25,525 bases of DNA from a virus (taxonomy: Duplodnaviria; Caudoviricetes): IMG/VR virus record IMGVR_UViG_3300049999_000312, positions 1 to 25,525 of that record; one strand, written 5' to 3'. The position numbers were made by a program, and so were the translations under genes. Positions 1 through 25,417 of this stretch are shown piece after piece (position 1 is the stretch's first letter; the number at the start of each line of letters is the position of its first letter). The notes under the pieces were generated by a model. It saw only the letters and a program-made list of their open reading frames with translations. It was not told where the DNA came from and searched no databases.

Positions 1-39
1 GGCAGGGATATAATCATCCCCCTCGTATTGCCATTCCAT
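1..39 (-). CDS. 5' end of a gene running off the window (MEWQYEGDDYIPA...); possibly the GIY-YIG-like conserved protein of T4-like phages
   Basis: ATG at 39 preceded by AAGGA SD 6 nt upstream; W-x-Y-x-G start resembles T4-like 'MWxYxG...GFVY' proteins; only 13 codons visible. Confidence 0.5.
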   Translation of the reverse strand, partial: MEWQYEGDDYIPA

Positions 40-57
40 AATTTATCCTTATGTCTG

Positions 58-1257
58 TTAGTCATATACCTCCCCCCAGACTCCCTTTAAAGATCCAACT
101 TCATATTCAGTTACACGATTTTCAAAGAAATTCGTATGATCAGGTGCATTTAATACCCAATCCAACCACGGTAAAGGATTGTCCTTTACTTTAAAATTAG
201 GTTTGAATCCTAATTGCAGAAGTCTTCGGTCTGCAATATGTCTTATATATAATTTAACATCTTCCTTTGACAATTGATCTATTTCATTAACGTTATCATA
301 AGCTAGTTCAATGAACTTATCTTCTAGTTCAACTGACTGTCTTAATAATGAATAAATTGCCAATTTAAATTCGTCTGTTACGATTTTTGGATGTTCTTCA
401 CAGAATCCACGAAATAATTGAGTCATCCCATCTACATGCATAGTCTCATCTCTAATAGACCATTCGACTACCTTACACATCCCTTTCATTTTACCGAATC
501 TTTGGAAGTTTAGTAGCATAACAAACGATGCAAATAAACTGATTCCCTCAGAGAATACAGATTTTGCAATCGCAGTTGCTAATTTAGAATAATTCGAATT
601 ATCATTATCTCTCATGAACTCAACTTTATCAGCCATTTCTTTATATTCCAAGAATGAGTGAAATTCTGATTCAGGTAATCCAAGAGTGTCATTCAATAGT
701 GCATATGCTCTCTGATGAACACCCTCTCTTGCTGCAAATGATCCCAACATATTACGGATCTCGTTATTCTTTAACTTAGGAATAAAAAAATCATAATAGT
801 TCTGACCAACTGCAACATCAGATTGTGTGAACAACCTGAGTACTTGTATTATAAAATCCTTTTCTATAGAACTTAATTTACCTTTCTTCCAATCCGCCAC
901 ATCATCTGATAGGTCAATCTCATCTTCAATCCAATGAGCTTGTTCATGTCGTTTGGTTAATTCTACTGCCCATGGATATCTAAATGGTTTATAAGATTCT
1001 GATGGGGTTGTCATGTTAACTGGTGTTTCGAAAAGAAACATTTCTTTATTAGACATTAATGTATCATAATTGCCCAAATATTTACCATCCACCACAATTT
1101 GTGGGACAGACCTTTGTCGAAATCTTAGAAACATTTCTAAATTATCATCAGATTCTGTGATATCGATAACCGTATATCTCACGGAATGTTTATCAAACCA
1201 TGCCTTTGCTTGATCACAAAAACTACATTGTGGTTTACTGTATAACTCTATTTTCAT
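58..1257 (-). CDS. nrdB: Ribonucleotide reductase class I beta subunit with N-terminal glutaredoxin domain
   Basis: First ~75 aa: YSKPQCSFC...SVPQI..DGKYLG (glutaredoxin). Remainder R2: YKPFRYPW, HW, FTQSD, EGVHQRAY (radical Tyr), SEG, IRDETMH, NFFENRVTEY. Confidence 0.96.
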   Translation of the reverse strand: MKIELYSKPQCSFCDQAKAWFDKHSVRYTVIDITESDDNLEMFLRFRQRSVPQIVVDGKYLGNYDTLMSNKEMFLFETPVNMTTPSESYKPFRYPWAVELTKRHEQAHWIEDEIDLSDDVADWKKGKLSSIEKDFIIQVLRLFTQSDVAVGQNYYDFFIPKLKNNEIRNMLGSFAAREGVHQRAYALLNDTLGLPESEFHSFLEYKEMADKVEFMRDNDNSNYSKLATAIAKSVFSEGISLFASFVMLLNFQRFGKMKGMCKVVEWSIRDETMHVDGMTQLFRGFCEEHPKIVTDEFKLAIYSLLRQSVELEDKFIELAYDNVNEIDQLSKEDVKLYIRHIADRRLLQLGFKPNFKVKDNPLPWLDWVLNAPDHTNFFENRVTEYEVGSLKGVWGEVYD

Positions 1258-1298
1258 TTATTTCCCCATTAATATAAATCACCTACATGTATATAGGT

Positions 1299-2657
1299 TT
1301 AAGCTGGCAATTCCACTAAATGTTCAATACCATGTTCTAACCATACTATTGTATCACATCTCAATACTAATTGCAAAGCAGTTTCCATAAAACCAAGATA
1401 AAAAGTCTTCTCAATTGCACAATTCTTTTCAAATGTCTCATCTGATAGTTTTAATGGACATGAACCAGAACATTGTTTACGAACTGGACATTTAAGACAT
1501 CCCCGAACTGGACTTTTTTTCCTGTCTATATCTAATCCTACAAGCATTACTTCTTGTATATTAGATATATGTCCAGATCTAACCCTTTTATCAGAATGCA
1601 CACAACTTAAAACATTCCCTCTCAGATCTACATCTAAACTTTTATCCCAATCAACTCCACAATTGGTAGATGTTTCATGACTTTGTGATGCAACATGTTG
1701 ATCTACAATCGTATTAACTATTGCAACTGTATCAGTTTTGAAATTTGTACAGTTAACTATACCCTCGATATAATTATAATCATAATTCATAGGTGAATCT
1801 TTGATCACTTTTAAAAATTTCCTATGCACTATCCCAAATTGTTTCAATTCGTTACCTGATAAAATCAATTCATCAGATTGTGAATAATGATGATCGACCT
1901 CTAAGACATCTGTATACAATCTACCAACCTGATAATGCCACTGTGTAGATAATGCATCCAACCCTTTGAATACATCATAAAACCATTCAGACATTTCAAA
2001 AATATTATAATTGGATTTAGTCACAACTGTATTAACTGACCAACTTACATTATCAACCTCTTTGATATATTGCAATACTTCACGAACTCTAGGTTTATCG
2101 AAAATCTCTTCGCCTCTAAGTTCTTCTTGGCCTGGCCCGTCATGTGAAATCCCTATTTGGATACGACTTTTCATCCTTTTGAAAAAGTCGATATGTTTTT
2201 TATGGAGTGTTGATCCATTAGTAGATATGTACCAAGTCATCCCTGGCTTATCAAAAAACTCAAATAGTTTTTTCATATCTTTCCAATAAAGGAAAGGTTC
2301 CCCACCCCAAGGTTCAATATGATTCAATTTAGATATATCAAACTTTTTCATATTATGGAAAAACATATCCATGAAAGGTGATTCTCTTCTTTCTAACGGA
2401 GATCCAATATCTTTCTGGAAACAATATGAACAATCATAATTACAAGCTTGACCTAACTGGATCCGCATGCGTCTAGGGGCATTAGATTTTTTTATGGATC
2501 CAGTTATCCTCGAATCATATTTATCATCAATATCCCCCATATATGCATTATCACCCAATCTGTCCTGAAGTGGGTTTTTGTCCCCATCAAATAATGCATT
2601 AGTTCTGTTACAAATATAATATTCGGATCCATCATCTATTTTAAATTTGCTGTACAT
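1299..2657 (-). CDS. Radical SAM protein with C-terminal SPASM domain
   Basis: CNYDCSYC (CxxxCxxC), WGGEP, STNG, ISHDG; 7-Cys SPASM motif C-x13-G-x4-C ... Cx2Cx5Cx3C-x12-C. Start moved from 2735 to ATG 2657 (AAGGA SD, just past the nrdA stop). Confidence 0.92.
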   Translation of the reverse strand: MYSKFKIDDGSEYYICNRTNALFDGDKNPLQDRLGDNAYMGDIDDKYDSRITGSIKKSNAPRRMRIQLGQACNYDCSYCFQKDIGSPLERRESPFMDMFFHNMKKFDISKLNHIEPWGGEPFLYWKDMKKLFEFFDKPGMTWYISTNGSTLHKKHIDFFKRMKSRIQIGISHDGPGQEELRGEEIFDKPRVREVLQYIKEVDNVSWSVNTVVTKSNYNIFEMSEWFYDVFKGLDALSTQWHYQVGRLYTDVLEVDHHYSQSDELILSGNELKQFGIVHRKFLKVIKDSPMNYDYNYIEGIVNCTNFKTDTVAIVNTIVDQHVASQSHETSTNCGVDWDKSLDVDLRGNVLSCVHSDKRVRSGHISNIQEVMLVGLDIDRKKSPVRGCLKCPVRKQCSGSCPLKLSDETFEKNCAIEKTFYLGFMETALQLVLRCDTIVWLEHGIEHLVELPA

Positions 2658-2661
2658 ATTT

Positions 2662-4425
2662 TTATCCTTGACATGATGCACAGTCATCTTGTGAGTCGAA
2701 TGAACCTGATACTGGTTCTGATATATCTTGACCACTTGGAGTTTCTGAATAATCCTTCATTGTCTGTTGTTCAACCTTATTAGATAACAACTCAGCCTTA
2801 TTAGATGATTCAGTTCTCAGATAATATAATGATTTATTTCCATATTTCCATGCATTGTAATGTACATCATGTAGATATTTCCTATCAACCCCTGCAGGAA
2901 AGAATATATTAAGTGATTGAGATTGACAGATATATTTTGCTCTTTGTCCACCAAGACGGACAATTGCATTCTGATCGATCTCAATTGCAGTTTTGTATAC
3001 TGACTTTTCATGTAAAGACAAAAAATCCAAATGTTGAATTGATCCATTATTACCGATAATAGAATTCCAAATTTCATCCGTATCTTGACCGTATACTTCT
3101 AATAGATCAGAAAGAAGTGAATTTTTAATTAAGTGTGATCCTGCACGCGTTCTATGAACAAATGCATTTGCCTTAATAGGTTCAACTGATGGACTAGTAC
3201 CAGCAATACTAGAAGAATTTGCATTAGGTGCAATTGCAAGTAAGTTTGCATTTCTTCTTCCAGTACCAATCATATCCGGACATTCACCACGTTCTTTTCC
3301 CAAAACCAAAGACATTTTTACTGCTTCATCTTTAATATAAGAGAATACTTCTTCGTTAAGTTCACTTGCAGCCTGTGATTCAAATGGTATAGATTTCTTC
3401 ATTAATAGATTATGCCAACCCATTGCACCAATACCAATTGATCTTTCTTGAGTTGCAGAATACTTTGCTTTTGATATTTCAACAGGTGCATTATCGATAA
3501 AATATTGTAGAACATTATCAAGGAAAATAGTAAGATCTTGTACCAGACTAGTACCTTTCCATTCATCGTATTTCTCTAGATTCAATGAACTCAGACAACA
3601 AACTGCAGTTCTTTCTTCATTGGTTGGTAGAGTGATTTCAATACATAAATTAGATCCTCTTGAGATTAATCCTTTATCCTTTTGTGTTTGTGGATATGCA
3701 TCATTGGCTTTATCAATGAAATAGATATATGGTTCACCTGTACGATAACGGGTTTCTAATAGAGTCTCCCATAGTTCACGTGCATCTACTGTCTCAACAG
3801 ATTCATCAGTTTTTGGATCGATTAGATCCCATGATTTATTATTCCCCACTGCTTCCATAAAGGCATCAGGAACATTAACCCCATGATGTAAGTTTAAACA
3901 TTTTCTATTAACATCACCAGTAGGAATTCTAAGTGACATAAATTCCATGATGTCAGGATGAGAGATATCTAGATATGCAGCATAAGATCCCTTTCTAGTA
4001 ATACCTTGTTTATATGCAGTCATATCTGCATCAACCGTATGAAGAAATGGGATTGGGCCAGGAGCAATATCAGACACAGATCTAACATCAGACCAATGAC
4101 CACCGACACCACCACCCTTAACTGACAACCATCTTAGTTCGGATGTGTGTTCAATAAGACCCTCTAATGTATCCGGAACATATCCCAAGAAACAAGAGAT
4201 AGGCAGTCCTTTAACCTTTTCATCTGGTTCTGGTGCATTGGATAGAATAGGTGATGAAAACATAAACCAGTTTTTATCTATATAATTATAGATTCTCTCT
4301 GCTAGTTCGGTATTACCTCCGGAAAATGCGATCGCAGTTCTTTTAAATGCATCTGATGGATCTTTTTCATATTCCCTCATGTAATAATCTTTTAATAATT
4401 TATATGCTTGTTCAGTAAGATTCAT
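2662..4425 (-). CDS. nrdA: Ribonucleotide reductase class I alpha subunit, short form without ATP-cone
   Basis: SSP, PISCF, GGGVG, SNLCIEI (thiyl Cys), AVCCLSS, APNANSS, CQSQSLN, SLYYLR, C-terminal CASC; in-frame starts at 4431/4428/4425, GAGG SD fits 4425 best. Confidence 0.96.
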   Translation of the reverse strand: MNLTEQAYKLLKDYYMREYEKDPSDAFKRTAIAFSGGNTELAERIYNYIDKNWFMFSSPILSNAPEPDEKVKGLPISCFLGYVPDTLEGLIEHTSELRWLSVKGGGVGGHWSDVRSVSDIAPGPIPFLHTVDADMTAYKQGITRKGSYAAYLDISHPDIMEFMSLRIPTGDVNRKCLNLHHGVNVPDAFMEAVGNNKSWDLIDPKTDESVETVDARELWETLLETRYRTGEPYIYFIDKANDAYPQTQKDKGLISRGSNLCIEITLPTNEERTAVCCLSSLNLEKYDEWKGTSLVQDLTIFLDNVLQYFIDNAPVEISKAKYSATQERSIGIGAMGWHNLLMKKSIPFESQAASELNEEVFSYIKDEAVKMSLVLGKERGECPDMIGTGRRNANLLAIAPNANSSSIAGTSPSVEPIKANAFVHRTRAGSHLIKNSLLSDLLEVYGQDTDEIWNSIIGNNGSIQHLDFLSLHEKSVYKTAIEIDQNAIVRLGGQRAKYICQSQSLNIFFPAGVDRKYLHDVHYNAWKYGNKSLYYLRTESSNKAELLSNKVEQQTMKDYSETPSGQDISEPVSGSFDSQDDCASCQG

Positions 4426-4452
4426 CATCACCTCTTCTAATTGTTTATTTTT

Positions 4453-4599
4453 TTATTTTTTGACTTCGGTTTCAGTTTCTGGCCATAATGCATTTTCCCT
4501 TACTAGTTGTTCTGCATTATCCCATTCTAAGTCTTTAATTTTCTTTTCTAAATCTTTTTTCTCAAATTCCAATACTTCAATTACATCTTTATTATCCAT
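4453..4599 (-). CDS. Small 48-aa coiled-coil-like protein (MDNKDVIEVLEFEKKDLEKKIKDLEWDNAEQLVRENALWPETETEVKK), absent from ORF track
   Basis: GGAG SD, ATG overlapping the gp59 end, fills the gap before nrdA. Confidence 0.75.
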   Translation of the reverse strand: MDNKDVIEVLEFEKKDLEKKIKDLEWDNAEQLVRENALWPETETEVKK

Positions 4600-5230
4600 T
4601 TTTAATTTCTCCAATCAGATAATCACGATATTCGGATCTATTATAGTTAGTGATCCATTTTATGTATGTTTCATATTTCTTTATTTTATAATCGAATGAC
4701 CTCCATAGATAATCATCTTTCAGTTTCACATTAAACACATCAACAAAATTGGTAAGACTATTGATTATAGATATAGTCTCCATTGTACATCTTTCGGTAA
4801 GTATTTTTGGATCATCTGGGTCAAATAATTCCTCAAAGGTATTGCCATCTAATAACCTAACAACATCATTTTTGAAATTATACATAAGTGATCCCATAGA
4901 ACCTATCAATTTTTGTAGATAAGATCTATCTAGTTGATCTGGTTGTAAACCTTGGGCACCTTGTGCAGAAGAAGTATTATATATAATATTACCCACCACC
5001 AATTTCACAAACTCATCCCTACTATATGTATTTGCGGCTTTCTCATAATGCCACATATTCATTCTATTTTGGAATGTCGTATATGAATGGTGGTTTAAAT
5101 AATTTATCCTTTTATTATGCATTATATCAATGAAATTAAAATCTCCCGACTTTTTTCTGAAATGCATTTTAATACCCATCAAATATAGATCTGCACGATA
5201 TCCATCCCATTCATCTAAGGTTCTACCCAT
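4592..5230 (-). CDS. 59: gp59-like helicase loader
   Basis: DGYRADLYLMGIKMHF and FQNR..M..YEK resemble the T4 gp59 N-terminus; ~210 aa; directly downstream of gp33. Confidence 0.75.
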   Translation of the reverse strand: MGRTLDEWDGYRADLYLMGIKMHFRKKSGDFNFIDIMHNKRINYLNHHSYTTFQNRMNMWHYEKAANTYSRDEFVKLVVGNIIYNTSSAQGAQGLQPDQLDRSYLQKLIGSMGSLMYNFKNDVVRLLDGNTFEELFDPDDPKILTERCTMETISIINSLTNFVDVFNVKLKDDYLWRSFDYKIKKYETYIKWITNYNRSEYRDYLIGEIKNG

Positions 5231-5490
5231 TAGATAGGTAGAATTGGTCGTGTCACACCCCTATCAATCACATGATTTTTATATGCATCCATATACATTT
5301 TTTCTTTGATATTCGGAGTTAATAATTTTGCAGCAGATTCAATTTCCATTTCATATTCTTCACAATACCATAGTATGGTATCCAAGATAGACATAGAATG
5401 TTCATTAGCTTTAACTTCGATTATCTCTGAAAATTTCTTTTTAGTTAAAAGAATTTCCGATGTTTTTTTACTTGTATCAATTGCAATCAT
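5230..5490 (-). CDS. 33: gp33-like late transcription coactivator
   Basis: KKFSEIIE...SILDTILWYCEEYEMEIESAAKLL..NIKEK...LPI; gp33-gp59 synteny. Confidence 0.85.
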   Translation of the reverse strand: MIAIDTSKKTSEILLTKKKFSEIIEVKANEHSMSILDTILWYCEEYEMEIESAAKLLTPNIKEKMYMDAYKNHVIDRGVTRPILPI

Positions 5491-5521
5491 TAATTTTCAC
5501 CTTTCACCAAATTATGTATAT

Positions 5522-5550
5522 ATTATAACAAAGATAATCACATTTGTCCA
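5522..5550 (-). promoter_or_regulatory. sigma70-type promoter for gp33/gp59/nrd genes
   Basis: TGGACA-17bp-TATAAT with TGn extended -10. Confidence 0.7.
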
Positions 5551-5553
5551 GTA

Positions 5554-6243
5554 CTAATGTCCAGAATTTAATTTTGCAATCAAATAAGACTTAACAAATC
5601 CAGATCTAACAATATCATTCAACCCAAATTCAACTATATCAAATTCTTTCATATCCGTAATAATGGACAGGAATTTAGTGAACCCCTCTGCTTCACGATA
5701 AGAAAGGTCTGATTGATCGATATCCCCAGAAAATATAATTTTACAATTCTCTCCTACTCTAGTGATTATTGAGTTTAATTCCCAAAATGATAAATTCTGA
5801 GATTCATCTACAATAATCACTGCATTATCAATAGTAATGCCTCTAATATAAGAAGTAGTGATAAATTTAATAGTTCCCTGATCCACAAGTCTATTATACA
5901 GGGAATCGAAATCATCTGAATTATTTTGTTCGAACATATACCCAACCATCCCACGATATGGTGCCTGATATAGTTCAGTTTTTTCTTCAACATTACCAGG
6001 CATAAATCCGATATCCCTAGTAGGTACTGCACTTCTTACAATGAACACTGTTTTCTTATCCGATAAAGATTCCTCTAATGCTTTATACAGTGATATGAAT
6101 GTTTTACCGGTTCCTGCTGCACCATAAAGAAACAGACTTTGACCTGAATCATATGATTTGAATGTTGTCTTTTGTGCATCTGTTACCGGTTCTATCTTAA
6201 CTAGATTTTCTTTCTTGACAGTCATTTTCTTTTTACTCGCCAA
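5554..6243 (-). CDS. phoH: PhoH family ATPase
   Basis: GAAGTGKT Walker A, RSAV..R.IGFMPG, RGIT, IVDESQN, TRVGENCKIIFSGD..Q.D, DIVRSG; TTG start. Confidence 0.95.
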   Translation of the reverse strand: MASKKKMTVKKENLVKIEPVTDAQKTTFKSYDSGQSLFLYGAAGTGKTFISLYKALEESLSDKKTVFIVRSAVPTRDIGFMPGNVEEKTELYQAPYRGMVGYMFEQNNSDDFDSLYNRLVDQGTIKFITTSYIRGITIDNAVIIVDESQNLSFWELNSIITRVGENCKIIFSGDIDQSDLSYREAEGFTKFLSIITDMKEFDIVEFGLNDIVRSGFVKSYLIAKLNSGH

Positions 6244-11467: not shown

Positions 11468-11475
11468 TATTTATA
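11468..11475 (-). promoter_or_regulatory. T4-type late promoter
   Basis: TATAAATA overlapping the stop of the upstream gene. Confidence 0.7.
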
Positions 11476-12064
11476 TAAAATCATTAAACGATTCTAAAAT
11501 TCCCATTTCTTTTTTGAGAAGTTCGAATAATTCTTCTGACTGTTTAAATCCTTTAGGCAAACCCTTTGCAAACGATTTAAAATCTTTATCCACTACTGCT
11601 GCTCTCATCTTGGATGCAGACATACCTTCTACACCCTCGGAATCTGGATCACGATCCCCTGCAGATTTAACAGAGATTTGTTTGAAATCATAAAACCCAT
11701 GTCGTGCTTCAGTTCCATTATATTTATTAATCATTGTTTCGAATTCACTGACCCTATCAGATCCGACTACCATACAGATATAACCATATCCCTCATCATG
11801 GAGTTTTACCAATATATCAAATATTGTATTAATTTTAGCATCATCCATTATATATAATGAATGTTTAGGATTCATCAATCGTGCATATTTAACTTTATCT
11901 TTAAATGATAATGGATTCTTTTTACGGTCATGTGATCTAGATAGGTACATTCTATACTCTGCACCTTTAGATTCTTTTTTTAATGCATCAAGTAATTTAG
12001 TGTGACCGACTGTCGGGGGATTCAATCTACCGAAAGAGAATGTCATTTTTTTCATTTCTGCCAA
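11471..12064 (-). CDS. HIGH-superfamily nucleotidyltransferase (phage 'cytidyltransferase')
   Basis: FGRLNPPTVGH, KNPL, VVGSDRV, SAGDRDPD, MSASKMR. Confidence 0.88.
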   Translation of the reverse strand: MAEMKKMTFSFGRLNPPTVGHTKLLDALKKESKGAEYRMYLSRSHDRKKNPLSFKDKVKYARLMNPKHSLYIMDDAKINTIFDILVKLHDEGYGYICMVVGSDRVSEFETMINKYNGTEARHGFYDFKQISVKSAGDRDPDSEGVEGMSASKMRAAVVDKDFKSFAKGLPKGFKQSEELFELLKKEMGILESFNDFI

Positions 12065-13284
12065 CCTTTAATTATATCTTTTGAAAAGTTATTTGATGAG
12101 AATTCCATTCTATCAACTAATTTTACCGCTGAACCATCTGTATCAATTGCAACAAATCCCTCAGATCCTGATGTTTTGAATCCATCAATTGTTTTAACAA
12201 AAGTGTTTATATCTGATACTTTATCCAATTGATCAATTAGAATCTCTTTTGCAGCAACCAAATGATTCTGTAGATCGAACATCAATTTAAGATTGGCTTT
12301 ATTATCATCTGAAAAGAAACTGAGTACATCATCACGAACACCACGTTTTCTATCTTTACCTTTATCAGTTTTTAGTTTGTCAATTTCCTTTTGATATCTA
12401 ATATTAATCCATGATATCAGATCTTCAGTATGACTCTTGGTATTAGTTATTTTCTCTTGTGATCTAACCTTAGTGTTATTAAAGGTATTAATCATTTGAT
12501 TGATGATAGAATTATCTGATACTTCTTTTAATGTTGATGATGATATTTTTCTGAAAATCTTACCAGCATTCGATAAATTCTTGGTAACGGTTTCTGTTTC
12601 GGATTTAGTCATGGTTGCAGTACCAGATAAATCTTGAAGATCTGCAGTCCTCATCCATACAGATCTAGATTTTTTTAAGGAATTAATAGATATATCAAAT
12701 GATGCAGACATACTTTCAAATGAAGTTCCTGTATATTTTGTATGCCAAACAACCCCAATTTTAGATGCAATAACATCAGTTGCTTGATCTACCGGTATTG
12801 CATAAACAATTGTATTAGGATGAAATGTTATATACTTCTGACCGTCAATTGTTTCTTTTTTGAGATCAGGTTTAATATACATGATATCACCTTGCAACAC
12901 ACCTTTAATATTAAGTTTTTTAAATTCTGTGTAAGCAATCTTCAATTTAACCGATAGTTCTCCTGATGTATCTGCATCAATATCATCGAATGATTTATAG
13001 ACTTTAGGATTCTTATTAAATATACCTTTCTTTGCAACAAAAAACACACCATCACTTGGATCGATTCCAGCAAATACCGCAGGAGCTCCATCCCATTTTA
13101 CAGTGACATTATGGGAAGTGTTAGAGCTCCCACCAAGCATATCCCGTAAACTCCTCAATGCATTAATAGCACTTCTTGTCCCATCAACACCACCATCTAG
13201 AACTAAGTCTTCGATATGTGTCATATGGGTATTCTTTGCTTCTGTTATTGTTTTTATGGAAGTGAAGTTATTAAATGTTATCAT
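12052..13284 (-). CDS. Conserved T4-like protein (DUF6267-like) with covalent nucleotidyltransferase/ligase-like motifs
   Basis: KNTHMTHIED, TVKWDGAPA (KxDG), LQGDIM, F.PNTI.Y, EGFV, VKLVDR.EFS; paired with the cytidyltransferase. Confidence 0.75.
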   Translation of the reverse strand: MITFNNFTSIKTITEAKNTHMTHIEDLVLDGGVDGTRSAINALRSLRDMLGGSSNTSHNVTVKWDGAPAVFAGIDPSDGVFFVAKKGIFNKNPKVYKSFDDIDADTSGELSVKLKIAYTEFKKLNIKGVLQGDIMYIKPDLKKETIDGQKYITFHPNTIVYAIPVDQATDVIASKIGVVWHTKYTGTSFESMSASFDISINSLKKSRSVWMRTADLQDLSGTATMTKSETETVTKNLSNAGKIFRKISSSTLKEVSDNSIINQMINTFNNTKVRSQEKITNTKSHTEDLISWINIRYQKEIDKLKTDKGKDRKRGVRDDVLSFFSDDNKANLKLMFDLQNHLVAAKEILIDQLDKVSDINTFVKTIDGFKTSGSEGFVAIDTDGSAVKLVDRMEFSSNNFSKDIIKGWQK

Positions 13285-24930: not shown

Positions 24931-25407
24931 TCATTTTTTTTCAATAATATGATACTTTTCTTTAGCAACTTGGTATGCTTTTGCCGCATCTTCTTTTAAG
25001 TCAAATGAACCTAGATGCTTCTGCACACCATTAATCATTATGAATGCACCCCATTTTGACTGACGTTTATGCCAAGAATAACCTTTTGCAGAGGTATTAA
25101 ATGCATTCTCTTGATTAGTAACAACTCTCAAGTTTTCAATACGGTTATCAGTTTTTATACGATTTTCGTGGTCAATGAACTTATTTTTAGGAATGTCACC
25201 ATTATGCATAATCCAAATCAATCTATGTGCATATTGTTGTTTCCCATCAACCTTTAGTCTTCTATACCCATCTGTAGTTTTACCACCAGACTCCATGCCC
25301 ATCCTTGCCATTGAGGCCCTATTAGTTTTATTATACAACTTACCATCTCTGTATTCAAATAGTTCATGCAGTCTTTCTTGATCCGGATGTATTCCAATTT
25401 GACTCAT
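24931..25407 (-). CDS. HNH homing endonuclease with C-terminal AP2-like DNA-binding domain
   Basis: GY, AHRLIW.MHNG.IP, IDHENRIKTDNRIENLR...EN..N; KG.SW...KW.A.I..NG..KHLG.F....AA.AY; AGGAG SD. Confidence 0.9.
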   Translation of the reverse strand: MSQIGIHPDQERLHELFEYRDGKLYNKTNRASMARMGMESGGKTTDGYRRLKVDGKQQYAHRLIWIMHNGDIPKNKFIDHENRIKTDNRIENLRVVTNQENAFNTSAKGYSWHKRQSKWGAFIMINGVQKHLGSFDLKEDAAKAYQVAKEKYHIIEKK

Positions 25408-25417
25408 CACTTATCTC

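Follow-up and report, generated by a model that had tools for sequence, protein, structure and literature searches.

The 25,525-nt stretch of viral DNA analysed here (IMG/VR record IMGVR_UViG_3300049999_000312; hereafter the window) is a 25.5-kb piece of the replication region of a T4-like phage (gp43, gp41, uvsX, gp61, gp59, gp33, PhoH) and carries, between the class I ribonucleotide reductase (RNR) genes nrdA and nrdB, a gene for a radical S-adenosylmethionine (radical SAM) enzyme with a SPASM domain. We propose that it is an accessory gene in a variable slot and that its product is, on balance, likely to be a maturase of a C-x-C (CxC) repeat on a tail-fibre or adhesin protein encoded elsewhere, while its position between nrdA and nrdB is very probably incidental. 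The proposal starts from an intact enzyme with a CteB-like predicted fold, a variable slot, the absence of the gene from related nrd operons and the co-occurrence of its family with CxC proteins. Two things are new here: the copy of the family displaced into the nrdA-nrdB gap, and an adhesin split in two, the second part of which opens with a cysteine motif.

In this group of vent T4-like phages the nrdA-nrdB gap is a variable cargo slot. Scans with nrdB and nrdA gave 147 loci including the window's own, many of them short, and a family-profile search of the 146 non-self loci returned no match, the self locus alone being recovered. Both nrd genes are present in 98 of the 146 loci, 16 of which are close (at least 74%) and 82 distant. 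At the close loci nrdA and nrdB are 248-3990 nt apart; at the distant ones they mostly abut or are separated by a few small open reading frames (ORFs). In one long contig they lie ~10.5 kb apart. Thirteen slot ORFs, picked by eye, were typed, and the cargo in relatives includes Hsp70, acyl-CoA dehydrogenase, isocitrate lyase, N6/N4 methylases, FeoC, a hydrolase, NT5C and Phage_tail_APC ORFs. Examples are isocitrate lyase at L191:9786-11063, acyl-CoA dehydrogenase at L172:4125-6326 and DnaK at L089:2273-4159. The Phage_tail_APC ORFs stand directly after nrdA in close relatives (L085:257-601, L174:6853-7080, L181:1403-1621, L086:7220-7315), where one is broken and another begins with a fused Bfd-like segment, and belong to the same Pfam family as the gene beside the radical SAM gene in its home module. 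A DUF6267 and cytidyltransferase-like pair, found in the window at 11471-13284, can also occupy the slot in relatives (L184-L194). No family member was found in five longer contigs from related phages, which are 16-64% complete, in a search run without a positive control; in the 3 of 10 loci inspected, the TGY-repeat matches of these contigs proved to be reverse-strand Gln/Thr-type repeats or off-frame and did not represent CxC ORFs. The same slot holds a foreign gene in T4, mobE, which is co-transcribed with nrdA and has no promoter of its own (PMC2790892); unlike this homing nuclease, the window's cargo is a predicted maturase and that of its relatives consists of metabolic and chaperone genes.

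In order to see what the enzyme family travels with, we examined 79 non-self IMG/VR loci (the best 80 of 252 matches) and grouped homologue loci at 90% identity into 51 groups. A CxC-type motif, defined after the homologue loci had been inspected, is present in an ORF at 65 of the 81 loci with a homologue but at only 2 of the 146 nrd control loci, and a CxC-repeat ORF lies near the enzyme in 46 of the 51 groups. Of the other five, two are truncated on the upstream side, a third encodes a variant peptide, and the remaining two (L008/L009 and L010/L011) have none in the available DNA. The nrd genes were found within 8 kb at only 2 of the 79 loci, L017/L018, which represent one phage and thus 1 of the 51 groups; there they are 21-24% identical and ~4 kb from the radical SAM gene. 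P0003, the closest homologue of known context, recovered only L017/L018 when used as query. Homologues in prokaryote genomes (24-36% identity) have the motif at 33 of 69 loci, a few of these chance-looking, and no clear nrd genes were found at the 69 loci, one weak 95-aa match apart. Distant homologues in genome sequences of Rhodobacteraceae (L251-L271) and Bradyrhizobium (L273-L274) have an upstream ORF ending NCNCNCRC. A weak partial match near nrd genes in Vibrio nt-1 is to a remote protein with a very long branch and was left out of the family.

The phage copies occur in two settings. In the first, seen at 57 of the 84 loci, it comes last among the radical SAM proteins of a cassette that also encodes 130-aa and 68-aa fibre-tip-like proteins, a 320-aa ORF and three further radical SAM enzymes, with a DUF3050 protein at 36 loci. 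HxH is found in both fibre-tip-like proteins (42/42 for the 130-aa and 46/46 for the 68-aa protein), and the 68-aa protein has the C terminus C-x-C-x-C-x-C..RG. Examples are L013:1777-10041 and L002:4406-11976, the latter from Ralstonia phage RP12, and a B12-binding radical SAM gene lies close by at 15 loci. RP12 ORF76-80 (phrog_1802) includes a 31%-identical homologue, ORF79, which the accessible part of the genome report names only as 'molybdenum cofactor biosynthesis protein A' (PMC5468394). Unlike the window's copy, ORF79 sits in a cassette with four radical SAM genes, DUF3050 and an unannotated 65-aa CNCNCAC peptide, and this cassette adjoins virion genes. The CxCxCxC..RG peptide at L002:4867-5064 is missing from the RP12 annotation.

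In the second setting (21 loci, L045/L047 among them labelled via a spurious cluster link), a single radical SAM gene is surrounded by tail genes, which include a Phage_tail_APC gene and one for a GP38-like adhesin. Here the adhesin is two ORFs, and the second consists of a short leader, then CGAC(AC), CACACAC, CVCAC or CQCQCQCQC, then poly-Gly. The halves lie a few bases apart (L084:6896-7902, L060:5964-7096, L026:2221-3279, L012:6999-7965, L073:4310-5020); the first ends in poly-Gly, the leader of the second reads K/R-R-L-I/V-A before CGAC(AC), and the pair is always near a single radical SAM gene. The cultured phages RP12, JWF and RSP15 likewise combine the enzyme with a cysteine repeat: besides the RP12 peptide described above, the JWF fibre carries NCNCDCNCNCSC and the RSP15 fibre ends NCQCGN. 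In the gp28 tail fibre of Achromobacter phage JWF (L004:5679-7130), a Hint domain comes immediately after the NCNCDCNCNCSC run, which would place the cysteines at the processed end. TonB-dependent receptor or TctA genes lie near the enzyme at 7 IMG/VR loci; at these (L006, L008, L012 and L084 among them) and at L232:5431-11232, the radical SAM/adhesin module is followed by phage-encoded genes for a TonB-dependent receptor, TctA and binding-protein-like products. Taken from gene context, it is quite probable that the family modifies CxC fibre proteins.

A quick maximum-likelihood tree of 69 rows, from which fragments of <330 aa and duplicates were excluded, places the window's copy with the second setting. 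The window enzyme, P0001 (86% identical) and the L232 copy (57%) form a 100% clade nested in a 98% clade of single-enzyme, adhesin-associated copies. Full-length homologues, at 31-57% identity, together with this placement assign the enzyme to the phage Cys-repeat fibre maturase family (phrog_1802-like). P0003 (57%, locus L232) lies in a tail-fibre block, where the order is a fibre-like ORF, a Thr-rich ORF, a Thr-rich ORF with leader and CDCQCACQCDCQC, a tail-assembly chaperone, a 386-aa ORF and the radical SAM gene, followed by TctA and TonB receptor genes. The cysteine-rich neighbour opens with a leader and then a CxCxCxCxCxCxC run; searches for relatives of this protein gave one low-complexity match in one case and none in another. 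Within the same clade, the complete module of L012 lies in a replication region, and in L010/L011 the enzyme stands alone between a lysozyme-like gene and gp43, also in a replication region. Relocation has thus happened more than once. We regard it as probable that the window's copy still has a substrate and acts in trans.

The protein itself belongs to the radical SAM superfamily by its CxxxCxxC motif and a PF04055 match above cut-off (Table 1), and has GGEP at aa 118. Assignment to the SPASM subclass follows from the C-terminal seven-cysteine motif, the pattern expected of two auxiliary clusters, and the fold matches, TIGR04085 falling just below its cut-off (25.7 versus 27). All ten cluster cysteines are invariant across a 62-row homologue alignment. 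The predicted model (predicted local distance difference test, pLDDT, 83) is closest in fold to CteB (PDB 5wgg; Z 22.1, root-mean-square deviation 4.5, 365 residues aligned, model 1..431 to chain 3..450), ahead of anaerobic sulfatase-maturating enzyme (anSME; Z 20.7), ChlB (20.2), viperins (at most 14.5) and MoaA (at most 12.8), while the top Foldseek ranks are anSME, with 4k38 giving the best E-value, and CteB. The three N-terminal strands align with the N-terminal region of CteB; aa 33-50 have pLDDT <50, and the helices are unmodelled.

CteB, a SCIFF/ranthipeptide thioether synthase, and PapB (NF047865) thus resemble the window enzyme in the radical SAM core, the seven-cysteine SPASM domain and an N-terminal element in the position of the RRE, the recognition element of peptides that are made by the ribosome and modified after translation (RiPPs); the enzyme's family likewise has Cys-repeat partners with a leader. 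The differences are that CteB is 16% identical, and that the family's partner is a virion fibre or adhesin with C-x-C spacing, theirs being a secreted peptide with what we take to be CX3D spacing. Also unlike CteB, PapB and CrpC, the window enzyme has no adjacent Cys-rich leader precursor, which is present in the 46 groups and at L232. CrpC of Methanococcus voltae, a SPASM enzyme with three clusters and an RRE, installs ranthionine links in CrpA and is thus an earlier example of thioethers being placed on a Cys-rich protein and not on a short peptide (PMC13692751). The CrpC/CrpA pair differs in being archaeal, in its C-x-x-D/Q-type motifs and in that the enzyme adjoins its substrate; the word 'phage' does not occur in the main text of that report. 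PapB works through docking of the leader to the RRE (PMC12373016). Likely, by analogy with these enzymes, the chemistry is thioether formation, a choice that we favour only slightly. The N-terminal sheet would bind the short leader (basic residue-Leu-x-small) preceding the Cys run; a SAM-derived 5'-deoxyadenosyl radical would take a hydrogen from a residue beside a cysteine whose thiol would be held by an auxiliary cluster; and a thioether would form, at -2 Da each, stapling the fibre tip. The substrate would lie outside the 25.5-kb fragment and be modified in trans.

Several observations weigh against this reading. The window contains no CxC-repeat ORF, and L008/L009 and L010/L011, of the same 8-row clade, have none in the available DNA; nor was a distant CxC adhesin found in the L008-L011 contigs, which are 2-24% complete (one is 42 kb, 24% complete). 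Among the 25 NCBIfam matches listed, no maturase model reached its cut-off, PapB scoring 48.3 versus 340, and the N-terminal element has the strands of an RRE but no confident helical half. The spacers in the window's clade are often Ala, Gly or Val, unlike the Asp/Glu acceptors known for PapB and QhpD. Finally, co-occurrence with CxC proteins is not in itself a demonstration that the family uses them as substrates. When the window enzyme was modelled in complex with the leader-CxC stretch of L232, the score was 0.01 and the controls also failed to fold, a result that counts neither for nor against the pairing.

The missing substrate raises the possibility that the enzyme is a stranded passenger, taken from a fibre-maturation module and now roleless or with an unrelated new role. 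The branch to the window's clade is long (0.94 in the quick tree) and the enzyme of L010/L011 is likewise alone; moreover, the tail-chaperone ORFs in the relatives' slot, one of them broken, mean that module scraps do land there. However, the ten cluster cysteines are intact, the protein is full length with core-like codon usage, and a second allele (86% aa identity) is found at the identical place. Besides, a missing substrate is expected in a window that is only a fragment and contains no tail genes, and we consider the passenger reading unlikely. Also unlikely is a bolder version of the maturase reading, in which the family's enzymes would give the host-binding virion tip a structure resembling a peptide natural product. 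The Cys run of the two-chain adhesin in the window's branch would be stapled, or the chains joined, to give a metal-binding loop, a metallophore mimic able to open TonB-dependent receptors, and the window phage would have a maturase working in trans from a replication operon. Several phages of the single-enzyme group themselves encode TonB-dependent receptors, and the so-called Ferrojan-horse idea is reportedly the background to such a reading.

A further alternative keeps the CxC fibre target and changes the radical chemistry, for example to Cys oxidation of the anSME kind, giving thioaldehyde or formylglycine, to epimerisation or to linkage of the split adhesin's two halves. The top Foldseek E-value of anSME (about 1.4 Z below CteB), the many Ala/Gly spacers and the adhesin's second ORF with its opening Cys motif are in agreement with this. 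anSME (PDB 4k36-4k39) also shares the seven-Cys SPASM domain and targets a protein cysteine; but it has no N-terminal extension of the kind that aligns to CteB, its model TIGR03942 scores 51.5 versus a cut-off of 349, and no sulfatase was found among the 30 window ORFs scanned. Also against such chemistry, the repeated Cys with Asn/Asp/Glu/Gln spacers in the larger cassette resemble ranthipeptide cores. We judge these chemistries improbable.

The sequence-only reading of this locus had linked the enzyme to dNTP synthesis, as a post-translational or nucleotide-modifying activity perhaps supported by the glutaredoxin fused to NrdB, or else as an accessory gene in an insertion hotspot, and had held that homologues in unrelated contexts and related phages without the gene would speak against the link. 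Both were found. The position, a probable co-transcription and an allele retained at the same place would fit an enzyme that modifies or activates NrdA/NrdB or uses the glutaredoxin. Yet NrdA has the catalytic Cys/Asn/Glu, the YY pair and the C-terminal CxxC (roles that we presume from E. coli NrdA) and NrdB has intact metal ligands and radical Tyr motif; with all class I catalytic motifs retained, the reductase needs no activase. NrdG, the small activase without SPASM that is paired with NrdD, is no parallel for a 452-aa SPASM enzyme beside class I NrdA/NrdB. The fusion of glutaredoxin to NrdB is general to the phage group and occurs in relatives without the radical SAM gene, and is therefore no partner of the enzyme. 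The absence from 146 related nrd loci and the rarity of nrd genes near homologues, viral or prokaryotic, also count against a role in ribonucleotide reduction, and scattered genes between phage nrdA and nrdB are already on record (PMC3653736). Such a role is very improbable. Equally so is a viperin-like or MoaA-like enzyme acting on nucleotides or DNA: the viperin model NF038283 gives the top NCBIfam score (63.8 bits, far under its cut-off of 180) and MoaA models match weakly, but viperins are not known to have the SPASM domain that is present here with all seven cysteines, both folds score well below CteB, and the family travels with fibre genes and no DNA-modification genes. Thus the hotspot option of the earlier proposal is supported, its post-translational half is favoured over its nucleotide-modifying half, and the link to dNTP synthesis fails; the outcome rests on the profile and structure searches against SPASM subfamilies and the survey of phage neighbourhoods that it had suggested.

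As for the locus, the earlier description of a 452-aa protein with CxxxCxxC and seven SPASM cysteines, 4 nt past the nrdA stop and ~40 nt before nrdB, is confirmed, the gaps measuring 4 and 41 nt. No terminator-like site was found on the coding strand in 1-6000, as that description had it, and sigma70-like matches are at chance level (38 versus 32.7 +/- 6.0 expected), the best (11/12) lying at 5550-5522 ahead of the gp33 gene. The T4 late promoter consensus, TATAAATA, is absent from 1-6000, and the small hairpin that precedes nrdB scores no higher than shuffled sequences (z 0.41). Since the coding strand has no terminator and promoter-like matches only at chance level, co-transcription of the three genes by read-through from upstream is plausible. 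The nrdA start is the ATG at 4428, with an alternative GTG at 4431; an in-frame GTG (2735) upstream of the radical SAM gene overlaps nrdA, and homologues start at the ATG instead. A similar-sized ORF precedes nrdA in most close relatives of this phage as well; the 48-aa ORF was ruled out as a candidate substrate because it contains no cysteine. A free-standing HNH endonuclease gene lies at the window end (24931-25410).

The phage is present in hydrothermal-vent metagenomes, with at least half of its sequence words matched in 12 runs, and contigs of 8 vent runs were compared with the window. The junction of the radical SAM gene with nrdB is spanned by a 921-1502 contig in all 4 runs examined for it, and that with nrdA by a 2360-2717 contig in run X12; IMG/VR contig L001/L165 has the arrangement at 100% identity, although its sample may be the same. 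These contigs show that assembly did not create the arrangement. In runs X5 and X9, contigs connect the nrdA stop with a P0001-type allele, an assignment read by hand from a loose contig end in X10 compared with the homologue alignment, and the gene has thus been kept in the slot long enough to diverge. Its GC content, third-position GC and codon fit (0.696 versus 0.661-0.736 for 13 core genes) are core-like. In none of the 8 runs did a contig join the flanks with the entire gene left out; one X10 contig continues differently past the nrdA stop, a single and weak loose end. Lower contig depth over the radical SAM gene than over the nrd genes was not used as evidence, because depth sums the nrd genes of other phages. 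The first 32 bases of the window, searched as an exact string, matched no viral contig, and a degenerate pattern that distinguishes the close clade matched only the self contig.

Table 1. Features of the nrd region of the window.
Feature	Position	Strand	Remarks
Radical SAM/SPASM enzyme, 452 aa	1299..2657	-	PF04055 44 bits (cut-off 29.5); phrog_1802 E 9e-43; ATG at 2657
CNYDCSYC radical SAM cluster motif, aa 72-79	2421..2444	-	invariant cysteines
SPASM domain, aa 333-413	1419..1661	-	seven Cys at 333, 352, 387, 390, 396, 400, 413
N-terminal three-stranded sheet, aa 1-30 (E2-7, E12-16, E22-24)	2568..2657	-	sits where CteB has its peptide-recognition element
nrdA, class I NrdA without ATP cone	2662..4428	-	NF006577/PRK09102 above cut-off
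Grx-nrdB, glutaredoxin (CSFC, aa 3-60)-NrdB fusion	58..1257	-	NF007186 above cut-off; NF009398 550 versus 649
48-aa ORF before nrdA	4453..4599	-	no PHROG match

Among openly readable main texts we found no paper on radical SAM modification of fibre proteins by phages; a cyanophage radical SAM protein mentioned in the accessible part of PMC12801897 is unrelated to the family. The analysis removes a tempting false lead, namely that class I RNR has a radical SAM helper; all that the window itself contributes is a displaced copy lacking its substrate. The phage family of the enzyme is widespread, RiPP-type chemistry on tail-fibre tips appears likely for it, and the single-enzyme modules of its branch (L232, L012 and L084) are the simplest enzyme/fibre pairs. 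If this is true, virions would carry enzymatically cross-linked receptor-binding parts, a layer of host range that is invisible in sequence.

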